The position numbers were made by a program, and so were the translations under genes. A DNA stretch of 64,000 nucleotides, taken from a virus. The DNA lies in the IMG/VR virus record IMGVR_UViG_3300045988_091566; one strand, 5' to 3'. The first letter of the stretch is position 1. Every line of letters starts with the position of its first letter. A model generated the notes under the pieces. The model had not been told where the DNA came from, made no database searches, and saw only the letters and a program-made list of their open reading frames with translations. Shown here piece after piece: positions 1 to 36,353 of this stretch.

Positions 1-349
1 TACTGAAATATTAAATTACTTAGACAATGAAAATAATTATAAATAATATCTTACCTCCAAAAGGTTTTAAATGTATAAATTTATTTGGTATATTATTCTG
101 TAGAAGAATACTAAATAAAATAGATATAAATCATGAAACTATACATACTAAATAGATGCAAGAATTGTTATATATATTCTTTTATTTATGGTATATAATA
201 GAATATTTAATTAGATTAATTATATATAGAGATACTAAATTAGCTTATAAAAATATCTCCTTTGAAAGAGAAGCTTATTAGAATTAGGGTGATTTAAATT
301 ATTTAAGTAATAGAAAACATTATAGTTGGTTTAGTTATATTAAGAAGAT

Positions 350-466
350 ATGAAACAAATGATTAAAACTGGAAAAGGATTACTATGGAAAATAGAACAC
401 CCAGTAGAAATAGCATATTCTGAGATTACTCTAGATTCTTTATTAAAACTATGTGAAAAAATATGA
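350..466 (+). CDS. small hypothetical protein (38 aa); its stop overlaps the next gene's start in an ATGA motif
   Basis: ATG at 350, TGA at 464-466, in frame 2. No in-frame stop. Overlaps the ATG at 463 of the downstream gene, which suggests translational coupling. Confidence 0.3.
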   Translation: MKQMIKTGKGLLWKIEHPVEIAYSEITLDSLLKLCEKI

Positions 467-1818
467 AATGGATACCTAAATATTAGAAAGCAGGTAAATT
501 AAATTTTAAAACTTCTGGATTGTCTTGGCAACAATCTAAATAGGATTAGGAAGTGACAAGACATACTCAATCTATAGGAATTCTGAATCCTACTAATTTA
601 AAAAGAAGATTATAGACAGCTTCTAAAAATTTAAAAGCTAAATATAATAATCTATCAACTAAAGAGAGAATAGCTTTAGCTAAGAGGAGTGTGCCTCATA
701 GTGAGATAGTTACAGTAAGGGATTAGTAGGGAAATACTAAAACTAGTACTAATCCTCAATCAGGAGCTATGTCAGGAGCAGATCCAGTAGGAGAATTTGT
801 AGTAGGAACTGCTGCAGGAAATTTAGGATTAGGTTTAGGTAAAATGGCTCTTTCTAAAATGGGTTAGAATGCAGTTTCCCATTGGGCAAGAAATAGTTTA
901 CTTAATGAGACCGCTGGAAATTTAACTAAGAATTTAAATAATCCATTAATTGAATCTGAAGCAGTACCTTTAGAAGATGGTTTTGTTTACAGAACATTCA
1001 CTCCCTCACATGGAGGATTTGTAAAAAACAATCGAATATATAATAGAAGCTACGGAATAGGAGATGTAAAAGTTCAGAATGGAAAATACTATTCTGTCAG
1101 ATAGGCTCATTTTAATAATCCTGATAAATTATGGTGGGATAAATTTGGACATAATAGAAGACAAGTAGTATAGGTAACTAAAGAATCTAACACATAGTCT
1201 TTATAGGATGCAGCTAATAACGGATTTAATTTAGGTTATGGATATTATACAAAAGGATATAAATTATCAGATCCTATAGAAATTGATAAAGTTATAAATT
1301 ATAAATTAGATCCTATAACCAACACCATGGTTCCTAGTATACCAGAAAAAATTATAAATAATAAACAAACTCCTTCTGAAATATTAAGTACTTCAGTAGA
1401 GGATAATCCTATTATGCAGTTATCTTATTACAAACCTACTAGAAAAGCTTGGAGTACTGGAAAAGCCGAAGGAAATGAAGCTACTTCTTATTTCTTTAAA
1501 CAATAGCCTAATCAAAGATTTGAATTAGTAAAGGACGTTGAACCTAATAATTATTCAATTCATTTTAAAACAGATAGAGATGGTTTAAGCTATGATAATA
1601 AAATGTAGCTATTTGCTAAGGTTGCAGATGAAGTACCTGAAGGTGCTAATCTCTCTACTTGGGGTTCTATATCTAGAGGAGGTATTCATGGTATAAATAG
1701 ATTTGGTAAAGACTTCGGATTTATCTAGAATGGAACTAGGCAACTTACTATGAAGGGAACTAAAGAACCTGTTAATATTCCAATATTTTAGAAACCTTTG
1801 TCTAGTTCCTTAAAATAA
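463..1818 (+). CDS. hypothetical late/structural protein (451 aa), TAG-recoded (about 15 in-frame TAG codons)
   Basis: Hand translation of frame 1 gives a continuous, protein-like sequence (MKWIPKY*KAGKLNFKTSGLSWQQSK...) from ATG 463 to TAA 1816-1818 when TAG is read as sense. There is no in-frame TAA or TGA. The standard-code ORF track shows nothing here. Confidence 0.6.
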
Positions 1819-1830
1819 ATTATTTAGAGA

Positions 1831-2046
1831 ATGAAATAGTTTTTAATTAAATTAATAACAGCGCATACTGGAATAAGTAGTAAAAGAGTGTGTGGAATAT
1901 TAGGATGGGTAATTAGTTTAGTTATTTTAATATACTGTTCTGTTAGTTAGATACAAGCTCCTGATATGATAGATACAGTTTTATATTGTTGTATGGGATT
2001 ACTAGGTATAGATAGCATAACTAGTATATGGAAAAATAAAGTATAA
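1831..2046 (+). CDS. small membrane protein (71 aa) with two predicted TM segments; holin-like candidate; contains 2 in-frame TAG
   Basis: Frame 1 reads M K * F L I K L I T A H T G I S S K R V C G I L G W V I S L V I L I Y C S V S * I Q A P D M I D T V L Y C C M G L L G I D S I T S I W K N K V, then TAA. There are two hydrophobic stretches. It sits in the late block. Confidence 0.35.
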
Positions 2047-2048
2047 AT

Positions 2049-2345
2049 ATGCCAAGAGGAATTAATGGAGAATATTATAATTATAGAATGCCCTTTGGAG
2101 GGAATTATTCGAATCCTTTAATATCTATATATAGTACAATAATACATTCTATAGATAATAAAAATCCTTATTTAATTACTAAAATTTACCAAACTCCAAC
2201 AAAATCAATACTATTTAATCCTAATATTATAGATGGAAAAGGAACAATGCATATTGATTGGAATAATTTAGATATATTTAAAAGTTTAACTCCAATAATA
2301 GGAAGTGCTTATGTTTATAAGAAGAGTAGGAACATTAATAGATGA
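2049..2345 (+). CDS. hypothetical protein (98 aa)
   Basis: ORF track, frame 3. The start context ATAAATATGCCAAGAG is repeated at 2642. Confidence 0.4.
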   Translation: MPRGINGEYYNYRMPFGGNYSNPLISIYSTIIHSIDNKNPYLITKIYQTPTKSILFNPNIIDGKGTMHIDWNNLDIFKSLTPIIGSAYVYKKSRNINR

Positions 2346-2658
2346 AAGTTTATATAATAGATGTATTGATTTAAGTAAAGATTATTTTGATAGAGATTAT
2401 TATAAATACCCTGAATTATAGCAATGGGCTGAAACTACTAGAAGGTATATTATTCAGGTATGGAGATTACAAAATCAATTAAAATACTATAAAGATAATA
2501 TAGACTTAAATAATTTTAAGAATTATAATCATTATAAATACGGAAAATCTCTTTTAGAGAGTTTTATAGGAAATGTTTTTGATTGGAAATTTATAGATTA
2601 TTCCAATAATGTAACTTATACCCATAATATAAAACATAAATATGCCAAGAGTAGATGA
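2311..2658 (+). CDS. hypothetical protein (about 115 aa) with one in-frame TAG; overlaps the previous ORF in another frame
   Basis: Frame 1 reads ATG 2311 ... TTA TAG CAA TGG GCT ... AGA TGA at 2656-2658. The translation MFIRRVGTLIDESLYNRCIDLSKDYFDRDYYKYPEL*QWAETTRRYIIQVWRLQNQLKYYKDN... looks protein-like. Confidence 0.35.
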
Positions 2659-3778
2659 AAGTAAACAAAATAAAGGAGTAAATAATAATACTCGGAATAA
2701 ATAGATGGCTATAGATATGGAATATTATAATAGATTAAATTATCCTAGGTTTAAATCTCCATATCTTGGTGCTAAATATTAGTAGAGAGTTATTCCAGTT
2801 AGAACTTTAAATGGGATACGAGATGTATTTGTAGATAATAGAGGAACTATAAAATAGGGAGGACATACTCATTCTAAATTATATAATTATAGTAATAAGA
2901 ATAGAACCCATCCTATAAAAGGAGCATATGCTAGAGAAGTAGATAGTTGGAATAATAATACTAGTCCTATTAAAGCATTAGTTAATTCAGGAATAGGTTA
3001 TGCTTTAGCTCCAGCTGCTTAGGCAGTATATGATTATACTAAAGGTGCTTTAGATATATCTAAGAATCCAACTAAAGCTAGTAATTATTTAGTAATGCTT
3101 CCTGTAATAGGATATGCTGTAAAAGCTCCTTTAAAACGTGGAGTAGAAGTAGCTATGAGAACTTCTAATGATGCAAATCCTATAGAAGACATAGTATATA
3201 ATATGCATAAAGCAAGTCCTAAAAAGCATGTTGGAGTATTATCTTATATATCAACTGGTGTAGGTTACAATACTTATGCTCCTGAAGCATATACTGGATT
3301 TTAGAAAGCAGCTAAAGGTAATGATATGATTGATGCTTATTTATATAATAAAACTATAAATCCTTCTTATGGAGTAAAGAAAATAAATGTAGATTATGGT
3401 CCACATGAGAATTATATAAGAAAGATATATCCATATAAAGATATTCCTGTATATGAAAATACTGAAACTTTAGATTTCTTTACTAAGAAACCTATGTAGA
3501 AAGCTTCTAATATAACTAATAAAACTCCTTGGAAAGGTGCTAATAATAATCTAGACTTTGGAGATAATGGAGTTGATGCTGCTGGACATTTAGTTTAGGA
3601 AGGAATATCTAATGGTAAGAAAGTATATAGAGCACAAGATATTTGGAAGTTTAATCCTGATGAATATAAGTAGAAATGGAGTTCATATGATTTAGACAGT
3701 AAAGCTGTATTAGGATTAAAAATATTAGATAAATTAGGAACTCCAGTAATAGTAAGAACACCATGGCTGTATAGGTAA
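2642..3778 (+). CDS. hypothetical late/structural protein (378 aa), TAG-recoded (about 9 in-frame TAG)
   Basis: Frame 2 is continuous from ATG 2642 to TAA 3776-3778 if TAG is read as sense. The ORF-track fragment 3095..3304 lies in the same frame. No in-frame TAA or TGA. Confidence 0.55.
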
Positions 3779-4899
3779 TTACTAACAATGATTCAATATA
3801 TGATTATTGGTATGAAGATGGGTAGTTGTATGGTAGAAGAAAATCAAATAAAGTCCCTTTTAAAATTAATTCTGATAAAGCTAATAGTATAATATTTCCA
3901 TAGGTTTAGGCTAAAGGAGTAGATCCTACTAAACCAACATCTACCTTAGTATACCATCCTGCAAAATATAAAGAAATGCCCACTGCTAAAAAAATATCTA
4001 TTCCTAAATAGGAAAAAGAAACAATATGGGAACGTGGTAAATAGTTGATTAATTTAGTAGGAAATGGATTAAGTAGAAAACTATAGTTATTTTTTGATTC
4101 AGAACCTGAGCATACTAGTAAAAGAATTAAAATTTCTAATAAAAAAATAACTAAAAATAAGAGGAGAGAAAATTTAGAAATAGAAATATCTCCAAATAGT
4201 TATACTATAAATGATACTACTAAAATAAACTCTAGAAGATATCGTATACCAGAATCCATAAATTTAACAAAGCATACTTTTGGTTATAGAAATAGAGGTG
4301 ATTATACTCCTATAAATAGTGTAGCAGCTCCTATTACTGCTTTTTCTAATTTCAAATCTAAAGAAAGCATATCTCCTAATAATTAGAATTATATAGGTAT
4401 AGATTCTATTGGTAAATTTGTTTTTGGTAAATATTCAGATATTCCTAATGGAAGTATGATTTCTCCAACATTTAAAAATACAGTTACTGGTTTTAAAACA
4501 GATTCTAAAGATAATGTATTATTCATGGAAAGTAATTCTAATGGTTCTAGAAAAAGTCCTATATTAAATGCTATAGTAAATGGTAAATCAGTAAATAACA
4601 GACTAAATTTCTTAGCTAATAATAATAGAACTGATGAATATGGTTCTATAGCTGGAGGAAGAATAATTATATAGGCGGGTAAAGAAGTTCGTTTAGTTTC
4701 CGGAAGTATAGATAATATTAGAGATGAGATAGAAGCTATGAAATCTAGAAACAATGTTAAAACAGTAGATTTATATACTTTAGATAATGGTACTTATCAT
4801 TCAGGATTAAGAACTTTTGATAAAATATTTACTAGAGATGACTTACTAAAATATGATGCTCAAAATACGGGCGGAGGAAATTTTTTATATATAAAATAA
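3763..4899 (+). CDS. hypothetical late/structural protein (378 aa), TAG-recoded (about 9 in-frame TAG)
   Basis: Frame 1 is continuous from ATG 3763 to TAA 4897-4899 with TAG as sense (MAVQVITNNDSIYDYWYEDG*LYGRRKSNKVPFK...). The ORF-track fragment 4456..4674 lies in the same frame. Confidence 0.55.
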
Positions 4900-4954: not shown

Positions 4955-5141
4955 ATTAATAAATATCCATCCCCAAATATTTATTAATAAGTAACAGATA
5001 ATTCATTTAACTTATCACAAAAATCAAGAGTTAATTGATTATCTTGTAAATCATTATCTCCTATAGTATCAATAATCTACTGTACTTCATTAAGTACTTT
5101 GTTCATTTTAGACTTTAAGTCTTTTAATTCTTTGTTAGTCA

Positions 5142-5423
5142 TTAATCAATTTTTATATAACCATTAACATCTAGATTATCATATATAGAAGTCATTGTAT
5201 ATCCTGTGATTGGATTTCTATAATGATATTTTTTAATTTCTATATCTTTTTCTGAATTAGAATTTATATTTTGGTTGTCTTTAATCCATTGGTCTAAATC
5301 AGCTTCTGTTCCATTCTCTAATTGAAATAGAATCTTAGGTTCTGATTTTAATCGTTTTAATTTTTTAGTAAGATTAGTTGTTTTTAAAATCTTACCATTT
5401 AATTCATAAATTGCTGCTATCAT
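5142..5423 (-). CDS. hypothetical protein (93 aa)
   Basis: ORF track. A GGGAGA motif lies upstream of its ATG. Confidence 0.45.
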   Translation of the reverse strand: MIAAIYELNGKILKTTNLTKKLKRLKSEPKILFQLENGTEADLDQWIKDNQNINSNSEKDIEIKKYHYRNPITGYTMTSIYDNLDVNGYIKID

Positions 5424-5630
5424 GTTCTCCCACTAGAATTCGAATCCAGACTAAAAGATTTCATTTTAACACCTCTGTAGAGGATTAGACTATCACATCC
5501 AGTCCTAGGACCAGTCTCTTTATTTAGTCGTTCACGCTGTATTTAAACTTGCGCCCTGTCACTTTATACTAAGTATATACGCTTCCAAGTCGATTAAAAG
5601 AGATTCTACTTAAAGATTATGGATTATCCT
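5424..5630 (-). other. structured non-coding region 3' of the HNH gene; contains a tRNA T-arm-like fragment (minus strand CTGGATTCGAATTCTAG) and several hairpins
   Basis: About 200 nt with no ORF. The minus-strand reading contains GGATTCGAA (a T-loop-like motif) and the palindromes GTCCTAGGAC and CCTCTACAGAGG. No complete cloverleaf could be built by hand. Confidence 0.25.
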
Positions 5631-6449
5631 TTAAGCATCCAATATTTCAAAGTAATAGTTTTTCCAAAGAATGCCAACATTTCTATTTAGAGTTGCTCTA
5701 CAAGTTTTCATTAATTTAGTAGTTACTAAATTATTATCCATTAACCATTGACAACATTCTGCTATACACCCAAATCTTCTTATTTCATTATGAGAAGAGT
5801 CATATTGTATAACATACTTTTGATTTTGTTTAGTTAATCCAGCTTCTGATAAAACTTGTTTTACTGCTTTAGGATTTAAATTATATCTATCAGCAACTTT
5901 CTTTTGATTTTTTAATTCTATATAAGAACTAATAATTAAATTCTTTAATTCATCAGAAAGTTCGTATTTAGATTCTACTTTTTGTTTATTTTTAGCACCA
6001 TAAGTAGTGGTTTGACTATGACAATTAGGACACAAAAATCTTAGATTTTCTATTCTATTATCATTATTTACACCATTAATATGGTCTAATTCTAGAGATA
6101 AAGTCTTACCCTGCCATTCTGTAATTCCACATATTGCACATGTATAAGGAAGTAATTTGTTTCTTAATATATAGCTTCTTAATATATTACGTGCGTGTTT
6201 TGAATTTTCACATAATAATTTAGAAGCATCTATTTCTTTCTTTTCATTACAGTCGACTATAGCTGATTTGCCTCTAAAATCTTTACCTGATAAATTTAAA
6301 TCTTGCATTCTTTGTTTAACTTGTGAATATCCCCAACTGTTTCCAACAGTAGTATATCCAAGTTTAAATAAAACTTCTGAGATATTCAGACTTGACTTAA
6401 CTAAGTCTGAAAACTCTTTATCCGTAAGTTTATAAATTTTATTTTCCAT
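5631..6449 (-). CDS. HNH homing endonuclease (272 aa)
   Basis: Contains the motif CAICGITEW...LELDHINGVNNDNRIENLRFLCPNCHSQ, a canonical HNH (His-Asn-His) signature, plus a C-terminal helix-turn-helix-like domain. Confidence 0.8.
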   Translation of the reverse strand: MENKIYKLTDKEFSDLVKSSLNISEVLFKLGYTTVGNSWGYSQVKQRMQDLNLSGKDFRGKSAIVDCNEKKEIDASKLLCENSKHARNILRSYILRNKLLPYTCAICGITEWQGKTLSLELDHINGVNNDNRIENLRFLCPNCHSQTTTYGAKNKQKVESKYELSDELKNLIISSYIELKNQKKVADRYNLNPKAVKQVLSEAGLTKQNQKYVIQYDSSHNEIRRFGCIAECCQWLMDNNLVTTKLMKTCRATLNRNVGILWKNYYFEILDA

Positions 6450-6508
6450 ACTTTAAAATTTTTAAGAGTCTTCTGTGCTAACCATTACACCATAGGAGAA
6501 TATTATCT

Positions 6509-6721
6509 TTATAGATAACTACTAATACTAAAAGGATTTGTAGTAGAAGTAGTTTTATTATTACTAGTGTTTATTGCAATAAACCCATTATGTGGTATAT
6601 CTTTTAAAACCATATTGTCTATAGTTAATTTAGGTCCATTAATAATATTTACTAGTTCTATTAATTGAGATACTGTAAGATTAGGAACTATCTTATTAAT
6701 TTTTTGTAATGTTTCTATCAT
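6509..6721 (-). CDS. hypothetical protein (70 aa)
   Basis: ORF track. Confidence 0.35.
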   Translation of the reverse strand: MIETLQKINKIVPNLTVSQLIELVNIINGPKLTIDNMVLKDIPHNGFIAINTSNNKTTSTTNPFSISSYL

Positions 6722-6905
6722 TTAAAAAATCAACTATGTGTTTAAATTCTTGTTTATATTTTTTATATTTAGAATTATCTAAATTAGAAGAAAAATCTTC
6801 TAAAGATATATCTGAGATAATTCCAAATATTAGACAAGCATTGTTAAATGTTTCATCATCTAATTTACTACAATATTCTTCAAATTCATCTACCTTTTTA
6901 GTCAT
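6696..6905 (-). CDS. hypothetical protein (69 aa)
   Basis: ORF track. Confidence 0.35.
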   Translation of the reverse strand: MTKKVDEFEEYCSKLDDETFNNACLIFGIISDISLEDFSSNLDNSKYKKYKQEFKHIVDFLNDRNITKN

Positions 6906-8771: not shown

Positions 8772-9131
8772 GGGAGCAGACTAACTCCCAAAACTCAATC
8801 TCCAATTTCCAACAAATCTCAAATATTCACTACAAATTCATATCTAAAATCACTTTTAAACCATATTACAAATTCAATATTTATCACAAAATACAACACT
8901 TTATTATTTTATTTTAAATATTGAGTTAAACTAAAATCAAAACAACACAAATAAAAATAAACAAATGTTTTGTTTAATGACTTTTAAGGTTGAAATCCCT
9001 GTCTAAAGTTTACTTTAGACAAAATCCTATATCATAGAGCATACCTCAACGTGGTTTATAGGTCTTAAAACTAAAGTGCTTAATATTCATTTAAAAACCT
9101 CGCGATAGTATAAGGTAAATCGTATAAAGTT
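8772..9131 (+). other. strand-biased A/C-rich non-coding region (nearly G-free for about 200 nt) with a GTCTAAAGT-TTAC-TTTAGAC hairpin
   Basis: No ORFs in any frame. Low-complexity CA-rich repeats (CAAAACTCAATCTCCAATTTCCAACAAATCTCAAAT...). Palindrome at about 9001-9022. Confidence 0.3.
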
Positions 9132-9434
9132 ATGCAGTATTTTTATATTGTAGTATACACAATTGTTGGTGATGATTTGACAATGTGTAAAATAGGACTC
9201 AATCCTCATCAACTAACTAAATGGGGAAGAAGAGAGGCTACAAAATATCCTGAACGTAGTTATAAACTATACAGACAGTCTATAACACATACTGGTAAAA
9301 TTACATTCTATAAACAACTTAAATCATATGCAACTGAAGTAGAGCATAGTTTAAAAGTTATAAAAGAAGGTTTTGACTGGGATGCATTTGAGGCAAGTCG
9401 AGGGGCTGATATGGATATTGATATTCGTAGATAA
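9132..9434 (+). CDS. hypothetical protein (100 aa)
   Basis: ORF track. Confidence 0.4.
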   Translation: MQYFYIVVYTIVGDDLTMCKIGLNPHQLTKWGRREATKYPERSYKLYRQSITHTGKITFYKQLKSYATEVEHSLKVIKEGFDWDAFEASRGADMDIDIRR

Positions 9435-9501
9435 CTACAAACACCTGAGCATGTGTATAAACTGCTCTTAACTAGATTATTAACTCTTTAACATTAAAAT
9501 T

Positions 9502-9723
9502 ATGGATAGAAATGTATTAAATGATATAGTAAATATCTTATGTGCAAATATTGAGAAAGTACATGGAGTTATTATCACTCATAACGGCGTTATAACTAAT
9601 GCTTATGGAATGAATAAATATGAGTATCTTGATAGAATAGTATTTAGTAATGAATACATGAATAATATTATTCTTGAATATAAAGATATTAAATCCATAA
9701 CCATTGTTGGTAATGAACAATAA
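9502..9723 (+). CDS. hypothetical protein (73 aa)
   Basis: ORF track. Confidence 0.4.
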   Translation: MDRNVLNDIVNILCANIEKVHGVIITHNGVITNAYGMNKYEYLDRIVFSNEYMNNIILEYKDIKSITIVGNEQ

Positions 9724-9734
9724 TAACATTAAAT

Positions 9735-9917
9735 ATGAAAGCAATAATCGAAAAAGGAAAAGCAGATAATAATATTCAAAGCTGCTTTATATCAGAATGT
9801 GGAATTGAAATAATATTTCATAATAATGACTTGGCAGATAAATTTGCTAAATCATTAGATCCATTTCATATCTCATATGTAAAGAATGGAAATAAAATAA
9901 CTATATCACATAATTAA
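9735..9917 (+). CDS. hypothetical protein (60 aa)
   Basis: ORF track. Confidence 0.35.
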   Translation: MKAIIEKGKADNNIQSCFISECGIEIIFHNNDLADKFAKSLDPFHISYVKNGNKITISHN

Positions 9918-9935
9918 ATTTAACACATTAACAAT

Positions 9936-10445
9936 ATGGAAAAGAATATCGTAAAAAATGGAACTAAAGTAATCCTCTTTGCATTAGATACAGAGGATAC
10001 AAGTGTGACTGGTGTTATTACTGGTCATTGGTCAACTATGTATGGCAAACTCATGTATAAGTGTCACTATAAAGAGCTTGATGGTATTGAAGGAGATCTT
10101 GATAACCTCATGAGAGAAAACTTTGAGGTTGTTCCTAATAAGTTCATTAACTTAACACCTCACACCATCACTCTCAATAATGGTACAGAATACCATGCAT
10201 CAGGTAAAGTTGCTCGTGTCACTAACAAGTTCAGCAATTTTTGCTGTGGTATTTCCACAGTGTTCTATGGTGAGATTGAGAATCTCCCAGAGCCTGAAGA
10301 AGGTACAATCTATATAGTATCAGCAATGGTACTAGCAGCTGCTAAAAACAAAGGCAGAACGGATGTAGTTGCTCCTGCAACAGGTCATCCAGATTGTATC
10401 CGAAAGGACGGATTTATCGTATCCGTTCCAGGATTCGTAAGATAA
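9936..10445 (+). CDS. hypothetical protein (169 aa)
   Basis: ORF track. Confidence 0.5.
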   Translation: MEKNIVKNGTKVILFALDTEDTSVTGVITGHWSTMYGKLMYKCHYKELDGIEGDLDNLMRENFEVVPNKFINLTPHTITLNNGTEYHASGKVARVTNKFSNFCCGISTVFYGEIENLPEPEEGTIYIVSAMVLAAAKNKGRTDVVAPATGHPDCIRKDGFIVSVPGFVR

Positions 10446-10476
10446 TTATTCATTATAACTCCAGTAAATAAAAGCA

Positions 10477-10719
10477 TTGTATCAGGGTTGTAACCTGACT
10501 GGAGTTCTATTGTTTAACACATTAACACATAAAAAAATGATAAAAGTATTGTTTAAATCAGAGGAATTGCTCATAGCAGCAGACTCTGAGAGTGCGGTGG
10601 TTTACGGAAACACCACAAAAAATACCGTAATAGAGTACCTCAGCAATCTTACTCCAAAGAATGGTGAAGAAGCGATGAGCATTATTATGCTTTACTCGCT
10701 ACAAGTAAGTATGTGGTAG
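10477..10719 (+). CDS. hypothetical protein (80 aa)
   Basis: ORF track. Confidence 0.35.
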   Translation: MYQGCNLTGVLLFNTLTHKKMIKVLFKSEELLIAADSESAVVYGNTTKNTVIEYLSNLTPKNGEEAMSIIMLYSLQVSMW

Positions 10720-10904
10720 CTAAACACATTAAAGTTACCACTAAAACAGAAGTGGTTGTAAAAACAGCTAAATCTTCAGTAGTTAAGACTGATGAGGATG
10801 CACTTCGTATTGCTGATAAGTTCGGTCTTAAAGCAGAAGTGCAAAGAGAACTTGATAATGGCGCCACGCCACTAAAAGCTCTTAAAGAGTGGGATATCAT
10901 TTGA
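10713..10904 (+). CDS. hypothetical protein (63 aa)
   Basis: ORF track. Confidence 0.4.
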   Translation: MVAKHIKVTTKTEVVVKTAKSSVVKTDEDALRIADKFGLKAEVQRELDNGATPLKALKEWDII

Positions 10905-15716: not shown

Positions 15717-15796
15717 GCGGAGTTAGCTTAATGGCTAGAGCACCTTACTTCCACAATTCATGAGAGGTTATATTGGTTCGAATCCTTTACTCCGTA
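15717..15796 (+). tRNA. atypical tRNA-like gene (80 nt); anticodon arm not canonical, isotype undetermined
   Basis: Acceptor GCGGAGT/ACTCCGT and D arm GCTT-AATGGCTA-GAGC are clear, and it contains GGTTCGAATCC. Positions 26-52 form only a stem (ACCTT/GAGGT) around a 17-nt loop. The T stem is weak. Confidence 0.4.
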
Positions 15797-16227: not shown

Positions 16228-16311
16228 ACGGTAGTAGCTCAGTGGTTAGAGCATCTCTTTTTATAATAGGTCATTTCGAGAAGGTCATTGGTTCGAATCC
16301 TTTCTACCGTA
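16228..16311 (+). tRNA. atypical tRNA-like gene (84 nt); anticodon arm not canonical, isotype undetermined
   Basis: Acceptor ACGGTAG/CTACCGT and D arm GCTC-AGTGGTTA-GAGC are clear. The region ending ATTGGTTCGAATCCTTT is identical to the corresponding region of the 15717 gene. The middle 34 nt fold only as a TCTC/GAGA stem around a 20-nt loop. Confidence 0.4.
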
Positions 16312-16419
16312 CAAATTTAATTTGATATATTGTTAGTGTGTTTGGATAAATCCTGACTAATAAATTTATTAGTATAGGTAGGTGTTACCACTATTCTCCT
16401 TTATAGAAATGTGGGCTAT

Positions 16420-16489
16420 GGAGATATAGCTCAGAAGGTCAGAGCACGGTGAAAATCCCGAGGTTGTGGTTCAATTCCACGTATCTCCA
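16420..16489 (+). tRNA. atypical tRNA-like gene (70 nt); no canonical anticodon stem found
   Basis: Acceptor GGAGATA/TATCTCC, D arm GCTC-AGAAGGTCA-GAGC, T arm TGTGG-TTCAATT-CCACG. The 19 nt in between (ACGGTGAAAATCCCGAGGT) do not form a 5/7/5 arm. Confidence 0.35.
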
Positions 16490-28584: not shown

Positions 28585-29097
28585 AGAGTTCTAAATTAGA
28601 ACTCTTTTAAGTATGGGGCATTCGTGGTTTTGATTGTATAGGAGATAAGAAGCACAGCAAAGACAGTTGGAAAGACAACAAAACAATAAATGCTAGAGTT
28701 ATCAATATGACTTCTGTTTCTTACGCTATTGCAGCCTAAGAAACCGAGCAGCACTTGCTTAGGAACAGAAAGGTGCACTATTTTCCATTTCTTTTAAGTT
28801 CTCTGTATACTTTAGGAACAGAGTGGTGGAAGTTGACAGTATATTAATCCTGTCAACCCTAACAGACAAGGACAGTCTTTAAAACCTATGCTGTAAGAAC
28901 GTTTTGATGCAAATATGCAAGACTGGAGTTTAATTTCGGACTCGGTATAGAGTGATTTATACAATAATTAATCGGATGAATTCAGGGAACGCTAAAAATA
29001 ATGCTTAGCTAGAACTAACATTATTCATGCCAATCCTGAGCTAAGCATATAGTACACTATATGAAAGTGCAGAGACTACTGGAGAGATTTAGTTCTC
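28585..29097. other. about 510-nt GC-elevated non-coding region immediately 3' of the minus-strand HNH gene; multiple hairpins; candidate structured RNA or intron-like element
   Basis: No credible ORF. Minus-strand hairpins GTTGACAG..CTGTCAAC, CCTAAG..CTTAGG and GCTTAGCT..AGCTAAGC. Confidence 0.3.
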
Positions 29098-29727
29098 TTA
29101 ATTACCAGCTTGAGCGTCCGACCCTTCATTAGAAGGTGATGATATAGTCCACTCCTCATCGAAAGATGAGGTATAGGAAGATATTAGTTTTAAAAACTTT
29201 TTAGTATCTAAATCAGACATTTCAGATTTCATAAAATTTATTGGAGTAGATATAAATTGTACATTTCCTTTGATATAGCCTTTAGAAGAATCTATCCTAT
29301 CAAGAGAGGCTCTGTAAATAAAAGGAATTTTTTTTAGATTTCCATAAGTAGGGAGAATAAGGTCTAGTCCTGTGTAAGGACATTTACCATTTTGTTTTTC
29401 CCATACTTCTTTTAAATATTCTAAATCTATATCAACTTCCTTAAATCTTTTTTTAGCATTTCTAAGGGAATATCTAAAAGGTGTATATTCATCTTCATGA
29501 TTATTACATATATTTAATAGGTGTTCTCTTTGTTTATCTGAAATTGGTCTGCCAGCTCTACTTTTATTATTAAATTTAGCTGCACATGATCTAGAACAAA
29601 AATTATGTCTTCCTAATCTAACATTTCTTTTGTACTCGGATTCAGGTTTCTGAAATTCCTTACCACAACAATCACAAGTGATTGTAACTAACTTTCTACC
29701 AATACAATACTTTTTTAATTCTGTCAT
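29098..29727 (-). CDS. HNH homing endonuclease (HNH_3-like; 209 aa)
   Basis: N-terminal Cys-rich region CDCCGKEF..CSRSCAAKF. C-terminal NGKCPYTGLDL...SLDRIDSSKGYIKGNVQFIS, matching the LDRIDNxKGY HNH_3-type signature. Confidence 0.75.
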   Translation of the reverse strand: MTELKKYCIGRKLVTITCDCCGKEFQKPESEYKRNVRLGRHNFCSRSCAAKFNNKSRAGRPISDKQREHLLNICNNHEDEYTPFRYSLRNAKKRFKEVDIDLEYLKEVWEKQNGKCPYTGLDLILPTYGNLKKIPFIYRASLDRIDSSKGYIKGNVQFISTPINFMKSEMSDLDTKKFLKLISSYTSSFDEEWTISSPSNEGSDAQAGN

Positions 29728-30009
29728 AGATTTAAATTTTAACTATACAATTATAGTTTAGTATTGTGGAATTGCAAAGTTAAGAAATGTTAATAGGCGA
29801 CTCTCCAATGCTCCACTAGTTCATAGAACTGTTTTTTATTATTTGTTTTTAATCCCTGGGCTATTATTATAGTTCAGGGATTTTTGTTTAATTTTAACTG
29901 TTAATTATGGAAGAATATATTAATAACTCTATTAAAATAATTGATGATATGTTACACAACATAGACATTCTTATAAATTTATTAAAGTAATTATTAAACA
30001 TTTATCAAA

Positions 30010-36252: not shown

Positions 36253-36329
36253 AGAGTATTAAGCCCTGTTGGTAAGGGAACTAGACTATCACTCTAGTAA
36301 AACTAAGGGTTCGAGTCCCTTATATTCCG
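36253..36329 (+). tRNA. tRNA-Asp-like with A34: anticodon loop CTATCAC (anticodon ATC) where Asp tRNAs normally carry CTGTCAC
   Basis: T arm AAGGG-TTCGAGT-CCCTT, anticodon arm CTAGA-CTATCAC-TCTAG, D stem CCC/GGG, acceptor AGAGTAT/ATATTCC (one mismatch). Confidence 0.4.
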
Positions 36330-36353
36330 CAACTAATTAAAAAAATAAATAAT

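Follow-up and report, generated by a model that had tools for sequence, protein, structure and literature searches.

Positions 6499-5425, on the minus strand, of a 64,000-nucleotide stretch of viral DNA (IMG/VR record IMGVR_UViG_3300045988_091566, hereafter the window) very probably hold a single gene for an amber-suppressor transfer RNA (tRNA), with anticodon CUA and most likely specific for glutamine, that is split by a 1003-nt mobile group I-type intron carrying an HNH homing endonuclease. The anatomy of the gene, its exact junction, the covariation of the intron core, the presence/absence polymorphism of the intron, the recoding of TAG and the lack of another tRNA(CUA) in about 98 kb are all directly established from the genomes. 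A sequence-only reading of the window had described an HNH gene on the minus strand followed by some 200 nt free of open reading frames (ORFs), a T-arm abutting the start of the next gene, and the frequent association of homing endonuclease genes (HEGs) with tRNA genes and group I introns. These descriptions stand. There is no ORF in 5424-5630, the T-arm (CTGGATTCGAATTCTAG / CUGGAUUCGAAUUCUAG) is at 5449-5433, and the next minus-strand gene starts directly after the tRNA, its ATG (5423-5421) lying two bases past the discriminator. The association with a structural RNA gene and a group I intron is seen at this locus and at a second one, where the host is a transfer-messenger RNA (tmRNA) gene. 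The interpretation of the T-arm as a fragment, or the footprint of an insertion, has to be abandoned, since the exons 6499-6465 and 5461-5425 rejoin as a tRNA(CUA).

The missing half of the tRNA lies upstream of the HNH ORF. Exon 1 (6465-6499, minus strand) reads UCUCCUA-UG-GUGUAAUGGUUAGCAC-A-GAAGA-CUCU and comprises the 5' acceptor strand, the D-arm, the 5' strand of the anticodon stem (GAAGA) and half of the anticodon loop (C32, U33, C34 and U35). Exon 2 (5425-5461, minus strand) provides A36, A37 and A38, the 3' strand of the anticodon stem (UCUUU), the variable loop, the T-arm (CUGGA-UUCGAAU-UCUAG), the 3' acceptor strand and the discriminator A. The acceptor strand that opens exon 1 is perfectly complementary to UGGGAGA at 5432-5426, directly after the T-arm. 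At the unspliced locus neither ARAGORN nor the Rfam tRNA model calls a tRNA, the latter even at E ≤ 10 on positions 5100-6800. The intron mode of ARAGORN (-i0,1500) also finds nothing, because it expects an intron at the canonical 37/38 position. On the exons joined in silico, ARAGORN does report a tRNA(cta), and the 72-nt product folds into a canonical cloverleaf.

The position of the junction follows from intron-less genes. When IMG/VR was searched for exact copies of the 18-nt D-arm, 120 loci were listed, 43 of them intact tRNA(CUA) genes and 42 tRNA-Gln(UUG) genes. The joined exons match the intron-less tRNA(CUA) of four of these loci (L028, L041, L059 and L067) at 67-68 of 72 positions; the anticodon arm is identical, and so is exon 1 to the 5' part of these genes. 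Across the junction region the intact genes read ...AGCACAGAAGACUCUAAAUCUUUUAG..., which leaves a single compatible junction, CUCU|AAAUC, with exon 1 ending at 6465 and exon 2 starting at 5461. Hence, the anticodon is C34-U35|A36 and the insert (6464-5462) separates U35 from A36. Alternative junctions would yield the anticodons Lys(CUU), Ser(UGA) and others, and are ruled out by the intron-less homologs. The spliced junction predicted for this strain is ...GAAGACUCU|AAAUCUUUUAGUCUGGAUUCG. It had been proposed that relatives lacking the HEG would define the boundaries of the insertion, and the empty sites of L028, L041 and L059 did so.

These data bear on the idea that the T-arm is what remains of a tRNA or intron broken long ago by the arrival of the HEG. 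Taken alone, the 3' region would agree with it, as it holds just a T-arm and an acceptor strand. With a 5' half at 6499-6465, perfect acceptor complementarity between the halves and a rejoined tRNA that matches intact relatives so closely, we find this idea barely credible. We thus retain the reading of a complete split suppressor gene, which is presumably functional as judged from its sequence.

The intron encodes a 272-residue protein (5631-6449, minus strand), whose ORF lies wholly inside the intron, between the 5' splice site and the putative guide sequence. Its earlier identification as an HNH endonuclease is confirmed by matches to Pfam PF01844 (E = 1e-5, residues 104-147) and to PHROG 10822, 'HNH endonuclease' (E = 3e-42). 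The ORF has no in-frame TAG and can thus be translated without suppression. A protein-guided scan retrieved 22 full-length homologs with 52-100% amino acid identity. All 22 sit between a tRNA 5' half ending in ...CUCU and a 3' half starting with AA(A/C), on very different tRNA backbones, and after in-silico splicing ARAGORN calls a tRNA(cta) in 15 of these loci. Three other loci at the same tRNA(CUA) site were found independently (L099, L118 and L113), giving a total of at least 25. One clade (L136-L141, L143, L219, L235, L258, L286, L294 and L318) has a non-canonical T-arm in exon 2, where GUGGG-GGCAGCA-CCUAC replaces the UUCGAAU loop, and ARAGORN makes no call on its spliced products.

The distribution of the intron among close relatives is uneven. 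The sites of L028, L041 and L059 are empty in genomes whose flanks are 97-99% identical to the window. In another relative (L097, flanks 98-99% identical), the exact U35|A36 site is occupied by a 223-nt ORF-less intron of unrelated sequence (700-922, guide GGAG), which scores 16.8 bits (E = 0.04) against the Rfam group I model RF00028, whose gathering threshold is 50. At least two unrelated introns use this site, reflecting either an independent second invasion or the replacement of one intron by the other. The empty/filled pattern among near-identical genomes is that expected of a mobile intron. From its sequence, the HNH protein would be a homing endonuclease that cuts intron-less tRNA(CUA) genes; at the homing target the intron-less allele reads CTCTAAATC, or ...GAAGACTCTAAATCTTTTAG... 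in its L028-type form. Beside this site, the T-stem of the window (5433-5449) is CUGGA/UCUAG versus CAGGG/CCUUG in the closest intron-bearing relatives (L122-L124), i.e. the changes are paired, and the introns are nearly identical. Co-conversion of the exon, or recombination close to the homing site, could account for this difference.

The intron itself (5462-6464, minus strand) starts after U35 and ends in a G, the omega-G at 5462. The window has both the U at position -1 and the terminal G, and so does each of the 22 loci retrieved through the HNH homologs (CUCU| and ...G|AA), where the homologous introns at the identical site span 979-1003 nt. We aligned the 19 distinct post-ORF segments of these introns and scored a proposed structure of 41 pairs. 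Standard pairs fill 98.0% of the 735 cells, compared with 33-47% in controls that shift the partners by 1-3 columns. Two-sided, compensatory changes affect 18 of the 41 core pairs, and the observed values were reached in none of 500 shuffles.

The first helix of this structure, P2 (UUAAAGG / UCUUUAA, 5610-5634), covers the stop codon of the ORF and has compensatory changes in four of its seven pairs. P3 (UCUCUUU/AAAGAGA, 5603-5597 with 5521-5515) covaries at six of seven pairs and encloses P4 (5589-5586 with 5558-5555), P5 (5582-5580 with 5563-5561) and P6 (5554-5551 with 5537-5534), with one compensatory pair each in P4, P5 and P6a. P7 (GACUA/UAGUC, 5529-5525 with 5492-5488) forms a pseudoknot across P3' and switches from AU to GC in two sequences. 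P8 (5513-5509 with 5504-5500), with two covarying pairs, and P9 (5483-5480 with 5475-5472) complete the proposed core within 5472-5513. All are on the minus strand. RNAalifold, run without a given structure, recovers the nested helices P2, P3, P4, P5, P6 and P8. The helix order P2-P3-P4-P5-P6-P7-P3'-P8-P7'-P9, with its P3/P7 pseudoknot, is the group I topology. In addition, the joining segment J8/7 with P7', GAUAGUCUAAUC, agrees with the Rfam group I consensus UAUAGUCuaauc; J6/7-P7 (GACUAAA) and GAUAGUCUAAUC resemble the R/S consensus in the Rfam alignment. Membership in group I is therefore assigned from anatomy and covariation, not from a model match. One element picked by eye as R/P7, AAGAGACU, was discarded, since covariation places AAAGAGA in P3' and identifies P7 as GACUA/UAGUC.

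The candidate internal guide sequence is UUGGA (5638-5642, minus strand), in the last codons of the ORF and 3 nt 5' of P2. Its bases complement the joined exons at U33-C34-U35|A36-A37: P1 would consist of GGA and UCU, including a U.G wobble at the splice site, and P10 of UU and AA. Since the exon partner CUCU is invariant, covariation cannot locate P1. Among 99 degenerate HNH codons whose amino acid is invariant, seven are also invariant in nucleotide sequence, and two of these seven are the adjacent TTG GAT that form the guide motif. The assignment of UUGGA as the guide is likely but unproven, and its placement gives the canonical order P1-P2-P3 with the ORF inside the loop of P1. The other five invariant codons lie close together at the start of the ORF (Y6, K18, S20, E25 and K29; approximately 6434-6363, minus strand), which suggests a constraint at the RNA level on codons 6-29. 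Two alternative guides were rejected, and both would leave the ORF between P1 and P2. The first is the GGA in the start of the ORF (AUGGAA), whose conservation is explained by the coding of Met-Glu; the second is a GGRG at nucleotide +116 of the ORF, explained by the coding of Trp-Gly, where Gly40 is not codon-invariant. Very short P1 helices are known from the tRNA introns of Azoarcus and Anabaena, where a 3-bp P1 is confined to the anticodon loop. Zaug and colleagues, in 1993, reportedly described an exon pairing requirement in the anticodon stem.

The intron is not an isolated element. Scanning IMG/VR with the invariant core motif (GGCGCAAG...GCGUGA..GACURAA) gave at least 120 loci. Among the 120 matches listed, around 40 are of the compact suppressor-tRNA type at the exact same site; exhaustive in-silico splicing rejoined 18 of them, all 18 with a CUA anticodon, and the rest were recognised by eye. 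The remaining matches listed (around 80 of the 120; L210-L327) carry long extensions of P9 and lack a tRNA exon. The large class has in common the motifs UAAUUGACUYGRA, GGCGCAAG, GCGUGA..GACURAA and GAUGYGAUAGUC, and the tRNA intron seems to be one compact branch within it. At its gathering threshold, RF00028 detects no intron in 16 loci with the same core motifs. These include the larger relatives, so that the model appears not to cover the class. When the core was searched with blastn against 50,697 GenBank phages, the only match was the unannotated record MT835539. On a related contig (L076, 1010-1259, minus strand) we also observed a sub-threshold match to Rfam RAGATH-14 (74.6 bits, E = 2e-11) adjoining a type III hammerhead ribozyme (40.6 bits).

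The need for a suppressor is apparent from the late genes. In positions 1-4000 of the window, the coverage by stop-to-stop ORFs is 0.08 under code 11 and climbs to 0.92 once TAG counts as a sense codon. The recoded genes within 1-4899 (plus strand) contain 15 TAG (457-1818), nine (2633-3778) and nine (3733-4899). MT835539 (L207 in our set) is 97% identical and reaches about 34 kb past the left edge of the window. This additional stretch is recoded throughout (coverage of 0.08-0.63, rising to 0.91-1.0 with TAG as sense) and has no tRNA genes. It includes a portal gene with 46 in-frame TAG and a gene for a tail fibre of 2068 residues with 64. In total, the recoded late genes of the window and its extension span around 40 kb. 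No other tRNA(CUA) was found in the roughly 98 kb made up of the window, searched for tRNA genes and for CUA anticodon loops, and the extension; related contigs measure 94-108 kb. The portal shares 23-30% identity with portals of the Crassvirales, and we accordingly place this gut phage among divergent crAss-like phages.

The identity of the inserted amino acid can be approached by comparison. In two homologs of the portal (47-54% identical) with standard codons at these positions, the commonest residue opposite the TAG codons is Gln (13 of 44 and 18 of 45, against a background of 6-7%), followed by Glu and Lys. The D-arm and the U1-A72 pair of the split tRNA are also common to phage tRNA-Gln(UUG) genes. 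Together, these observations make it likely that TAG is decoded as Gln (code 15), a charging specificity predicted from sequence comparison.

Other features of these genomes deserve mention. The segment 4621-4872 of the window (252 bp) is not in MT835539, which is otherwise 97-100% identical. Positions 8809-10752 of the latter, outside the window, hold an ORF of 647 residues without TAG that seems to include an inserted intein or homing endonuclease (Hint-like ...CNV...HN motifs), in keeping with the heavy load of mobile elements in the lineage. Several tRNA calls on the plus strand of the window are odd. At 16228-16312 ARAGORN reports an 85-nt 'tRNA-Stop' with anticodon UUA (Rfam tRNA, 53 bits), an imperfect anticodon stem and U at position 37. 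TAA is the main stop codon of the genome. The call could reflect a mis-registered or unusual tRNA. The calls at 15717-15796, 16420-16489, 18368-18440 and 36253-36330 include two made by Rfam only (80 and 70 nt), one with a two-base 'anticodon' in ARAGORN and one 78-nt tRNA-Asp(AUC). Unusual or interrupted tRNAs may underlie these calls.

Several points count against an interrupted, functional suppressor gene spliced by a group I ribozyme. RF00028 does not match the intron, even when the 221-nt core is searched by itself at E ≤ 10. The P1 helix would be only 3 bp long, and the GGA and GGRG motifs described above bring the guide candidates to three. A sub-branch of this intron (L215, L247, L265, L266, L279, L281 and L327) has no G directly before exon 2 (...GGUUUAAYA|AACC...). 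Seven of the homolog loci have an odd T-loop and give no tRNA call after in-silico splicing. The view of the split tRNA as the sole suppressor comes from the window joined to a 97%-identical relative, a combination that may miss a few kb of the genome. Finally, splicing, a mature tRNA and its aminoacylation are predictions from sequence. The L215 sub-branch, in which J3/4-P4 is also altered (AAAUAUCUCGG), has either a non-canonical omega nucleotide or decaying copies.

Some of these points would suit an insert that is removed in a non-canonical manner, either as a degenerate or protein-dependent intron, reliant on the HNH protein or on some host factor as its maturase, or as another class of RNA resembling group I. 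The lack of an Rfam group I hit, the short P1 and the sub-branch without omega-G would fit, as would a core of only about 180 nt and the 816-nt ORF between the 5' splice site and the core. We nevertheless consider it unlikely, given that the order and topology of P2-P9 and the P3/P7 pseudoknot are those of group I, that the -1 U and the omega-G are in place, and that GAUAGUCUAAUC and GACUAAA agree with the group I consensus. The small tRNA introns of Azoarcus and Anabaena, too, have a very short P1. The sequence-only reading had proposed that the absence of any intron or tRNA model hit would refute an interrupted tRNA; applied here, this rule would wrongly reject the locus, given the empty sites of relatives and the covariation of the core.

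A different possibility is that the tRNA gene is dead, destroyed by the insertion of an HEG cassette, and that suppression is supplied by a gene outside the sampled sequence, by the host or by a co-infecting helper. This would explain why no tRNA or intron model recognises the locus, and the genome is incompletely sampled. There are also recoded crAss-like genomes without a detectable suppressor tRNA, for which a host-encoded or highly divergent, undetected one was suggested (Yutin et al. 2021, PMC7886860). However, the core helices have been kept through 18 compensatory pair changes across lineages in which the HNH protein is only 52% identical, and such changes in a non-coding core imply selection for RNA structure. 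The complete cloverleaf is found in at least 15 diverged loci, and the T-stem of the window changed in a paired fashion (CAGGG/CCUUG to CUGGA/UCUAG). Moreover, the portal and tail-fibre genes carry their dozens of TAG codons in a genome where the sampled 98 kb contain no other tRNA(CUA). A dead gene thus seems quite improbable to us, and we favour a split gene from which a working suppressor is made.

Under this preferred reading, the precursor would be transcribed as a single RNA, in which the compact P2-P9 core, with its P3/P7 pseudoknot, would fold downstream of the ORF. The guide at the end of the ORF would then pair with U33-C34-U35 (P1, with the U.G wobble) and with A36-A37 (P10), and the anticodon stem would stay intact. 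A guanosine-initiated transesterification would remove the intron up to the omega-G at 5462 and ligate the exons into the 72-nt tRNA; such self-splicing is predicted from the fold and the conserved nucleotides. The mature tRNA would decode UAG as sense, as required for the expression of the roughly 40 kb of recoded late genes. In turn, when relatives with an intron-less tRNA(CUA) gene infect the same cell, the HNH protein would cut that gene in the strongly constrained DNA of the anticodon loop, and repair would copy the intron into it.

The genome contains a second interrupted structural RNA gene. The sequence-only reading had pointed to a second minus-strand HNH gene (29098-29727) next to a GC-elevated, hairpin-rich region, and had proposed Rfam intron and tRNA searches of both regions. 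The gene is an endonuclease by its PHROG matches (phage endonuclease, endonuclease VII and HNH; 3322/1035/3118, E = 1e-23 to 1e-11), with a weak zinc-finger match only in Pfam, and the GC content of 28585-29097 is indeed elevated (0.363 versus 0.293 in the window). The hairpins are on the plus strand, opposite the ORF, and consist of a tmRNA exon and a group I ribozyme core. As for the searches, the suppressor locus gave no match, whereas this one matches Intron_gpI with 85.9 bits (E = 5e-22, 28915-29171), although on the plus strand, antisense to the ORF, and in a tmRNA, not a tRNA.

Exon 1 of the tmRNA (28615-28930, plus strand) has the tRNA-like 5' end GGGGCAU, a tag frame at 28692-28739 (ARVINMTSVSYAIAA*), the pseudoknot region, and the 5' strand of the T-stem with the first two bases of the T-loop (UGGAG-UU). 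Upstream of the intron one reads GGGGCAUUCGUGG..., and then the frame ending in ...SYAIAA-stop; related phages have ARAGORN-called tmRNAs with the tag ARVINMTPVSYAIAA. The group I intron (28931-29797, plus strand, 867 nt) lies at T-loop subsite 3. Its guide GACUC (28939-28943) pairs with GAGUU, its core extends to 29171, and a long tail follows P9. Exon 2 (29798-29816, plus strand) provides the rest of the T-loop (CGACU), the T-stem strand CUCCA, the acceptor strand AUGCUCC (G3.U70) and the discriminator A. The HNH/EndoVII-like ORF (209 residues, minus strand) is antisense to the intron, with an overlap between its 3' end and P7'-P9 of the plus strand. Rfam tmRNA matches at this locus are weak, and ARAGORN misses the tmRNA both in the genome and on the spliced construct. 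The identification as tmRNA relies on the alignment of intron-less homologs. The 334-nt tmRNA called by ARAGORN in L156 matches 28615-28930 at 94% and 29798-29816 at 100%, with the break at GGAGUU|CGACUC in the T-loop. At eight related loci (among them L156, L158, L175 and L183) exactly the intron is missing, whereas L200 has it, with an intact ORF that is identical at 198 of 209 residues.

Intron-form tmRNA genes are well known. A survey counts 883 sequences at four T-loop subsites, subsite 3 being known only from Bacteroidia, and its HEGs are of the LAGLIDADG type in introns of at most 700 bp (PMC11915505). The present case resembles these genes (Williams 2002; PMC11915505) in having a group I intron in the TpsiC-loop, at subsite 3, with the -1 U and the omega-G. 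It differs in its phage host, its length of 867 nt and its HNH/EndoVII-like HEG, placed after P9 on the antisense strand. The restriction of subsite 3 to Bacteroidia fits a crAss-like phage. This locus is thus a new member of a known family, with an unusual HEG arrangement.

The suppressor locus has fewer parallels. Group I introns in the anticodon loops of bacterial and plastid tRNAs lie after a U in or next to the anticodon, have a small core and short P1 and P10 helices that use loop bases, with the anticodon stem formed. They have no ORF and reside in cellular genomes, in tRNAs for ordinary sense codons. Our intron is like them in site, small core and predicted short P1/P10, a likeness of anatomy rather than of established sequence homology, and RF00028 does not score it. 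Known cases are tRNA-Leu(UAA) of cyanobacteria and chloroplasts, tRNA-Ile of Azoarcus and tRNA-Arg of Agrobacterium (PMC3984707). The closest precedent is the tRNA-fMet of Synechocystis PCC 6803, whose group I intron encodes I-Ssp6803I (Bonocora & Shub 2001; listed in PMC1995217 and PMC3984707). In that case a 655-nt intron with a PD-(D/E)XK enzyme interrupts an initiator tRNA in a bacterial chromosome, whereas here a 1003-nt intron with an HNH enzyme, whose ORF is apparently in the P1 loop, interrupts an amber-suppressor tRNA of a phage. Phage group I introns with HNH HEGs (I-TwoI, I-BasI and I-PfoP3I; PMC1995217, PMC3428280) have the same combination of phage, HNH enzyme, ribozyme and presence/absence polymorphism, but their hosts are protein-coding genes, unlike the tRNA and tmRNA described here. 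Theta ribozymes, which resemble that of hepatitis delta virus and lie beside phage suppressor tRNAs (Kienbeck et al. 2024, PMC10879173), similarly couple a ribozyme to the maturation of a TAG-to-Gln suppressor in gut phages. They are small and self-cleaving and trim the ends of the tRNA, in contrast to a putative self-splicing intron placed inside the anticodon and carrying a mobility gene. We found no intron-split phage suppressor tRNA in the open-access literature, and earlier description elsewhere is possible. The Borges et al. preprint, the theta-ribozyme study (PMC10879173), the Zeta-crAss study, the Jug-phage preprint and a 2025 intron/HEG database paper make no mention of introns in phage tRNAs.

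In 2014, all known phage introns were in protein-coding genes, despite the many tRNA genes of phages (PMC3984707). The two structural RNA genes interrupted in this one genome are an exception to that statement for group I introns. The case recurs, with about 40 loci among the 120 core-motif matches listed and all 22 of the HNH homologs retrieved at the same exact site. The anticodon loop of a suppressor is an ideal homing target, since it is short, invariant and indispensable, and it is apparently the anticodon that the guide of the ribozyme reads. What the intron interrupts is the very gene behind the genetic-code switch, and this gene is invisible to ARAGORN and to the Rfam tRNA model, which offers a testable explanation for recoded phages 'without' suppressor tRNA (PMC7886860). 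Going further is speculative, and we consider the following rather unlikely, though of interest: the intron might do more than spread itself as a selfish element. The only suppressor tRNA cannot exist before the ribozyme folds and splices, so that splicing might act as a checkpoint or timer for the TAG-to-Gln switch and the translation of late and lysis genes, in parallel with a proposal made for theta ribozymes. Because the HNH enzyme would cut the one gene on which all the late proteins of a rival recoded phage depend, it might also serve as a weapon between phages, and intron-split suppressors might account for some of the 'suppressor-less' recoded genomes. Independently of these ideas, the intron would be, after theta ribozymes, a second class of ribozyme physically coupled to the maturation of suppressor tRNAs in gut phages, making the trigger of the code switch experimentally approachable.

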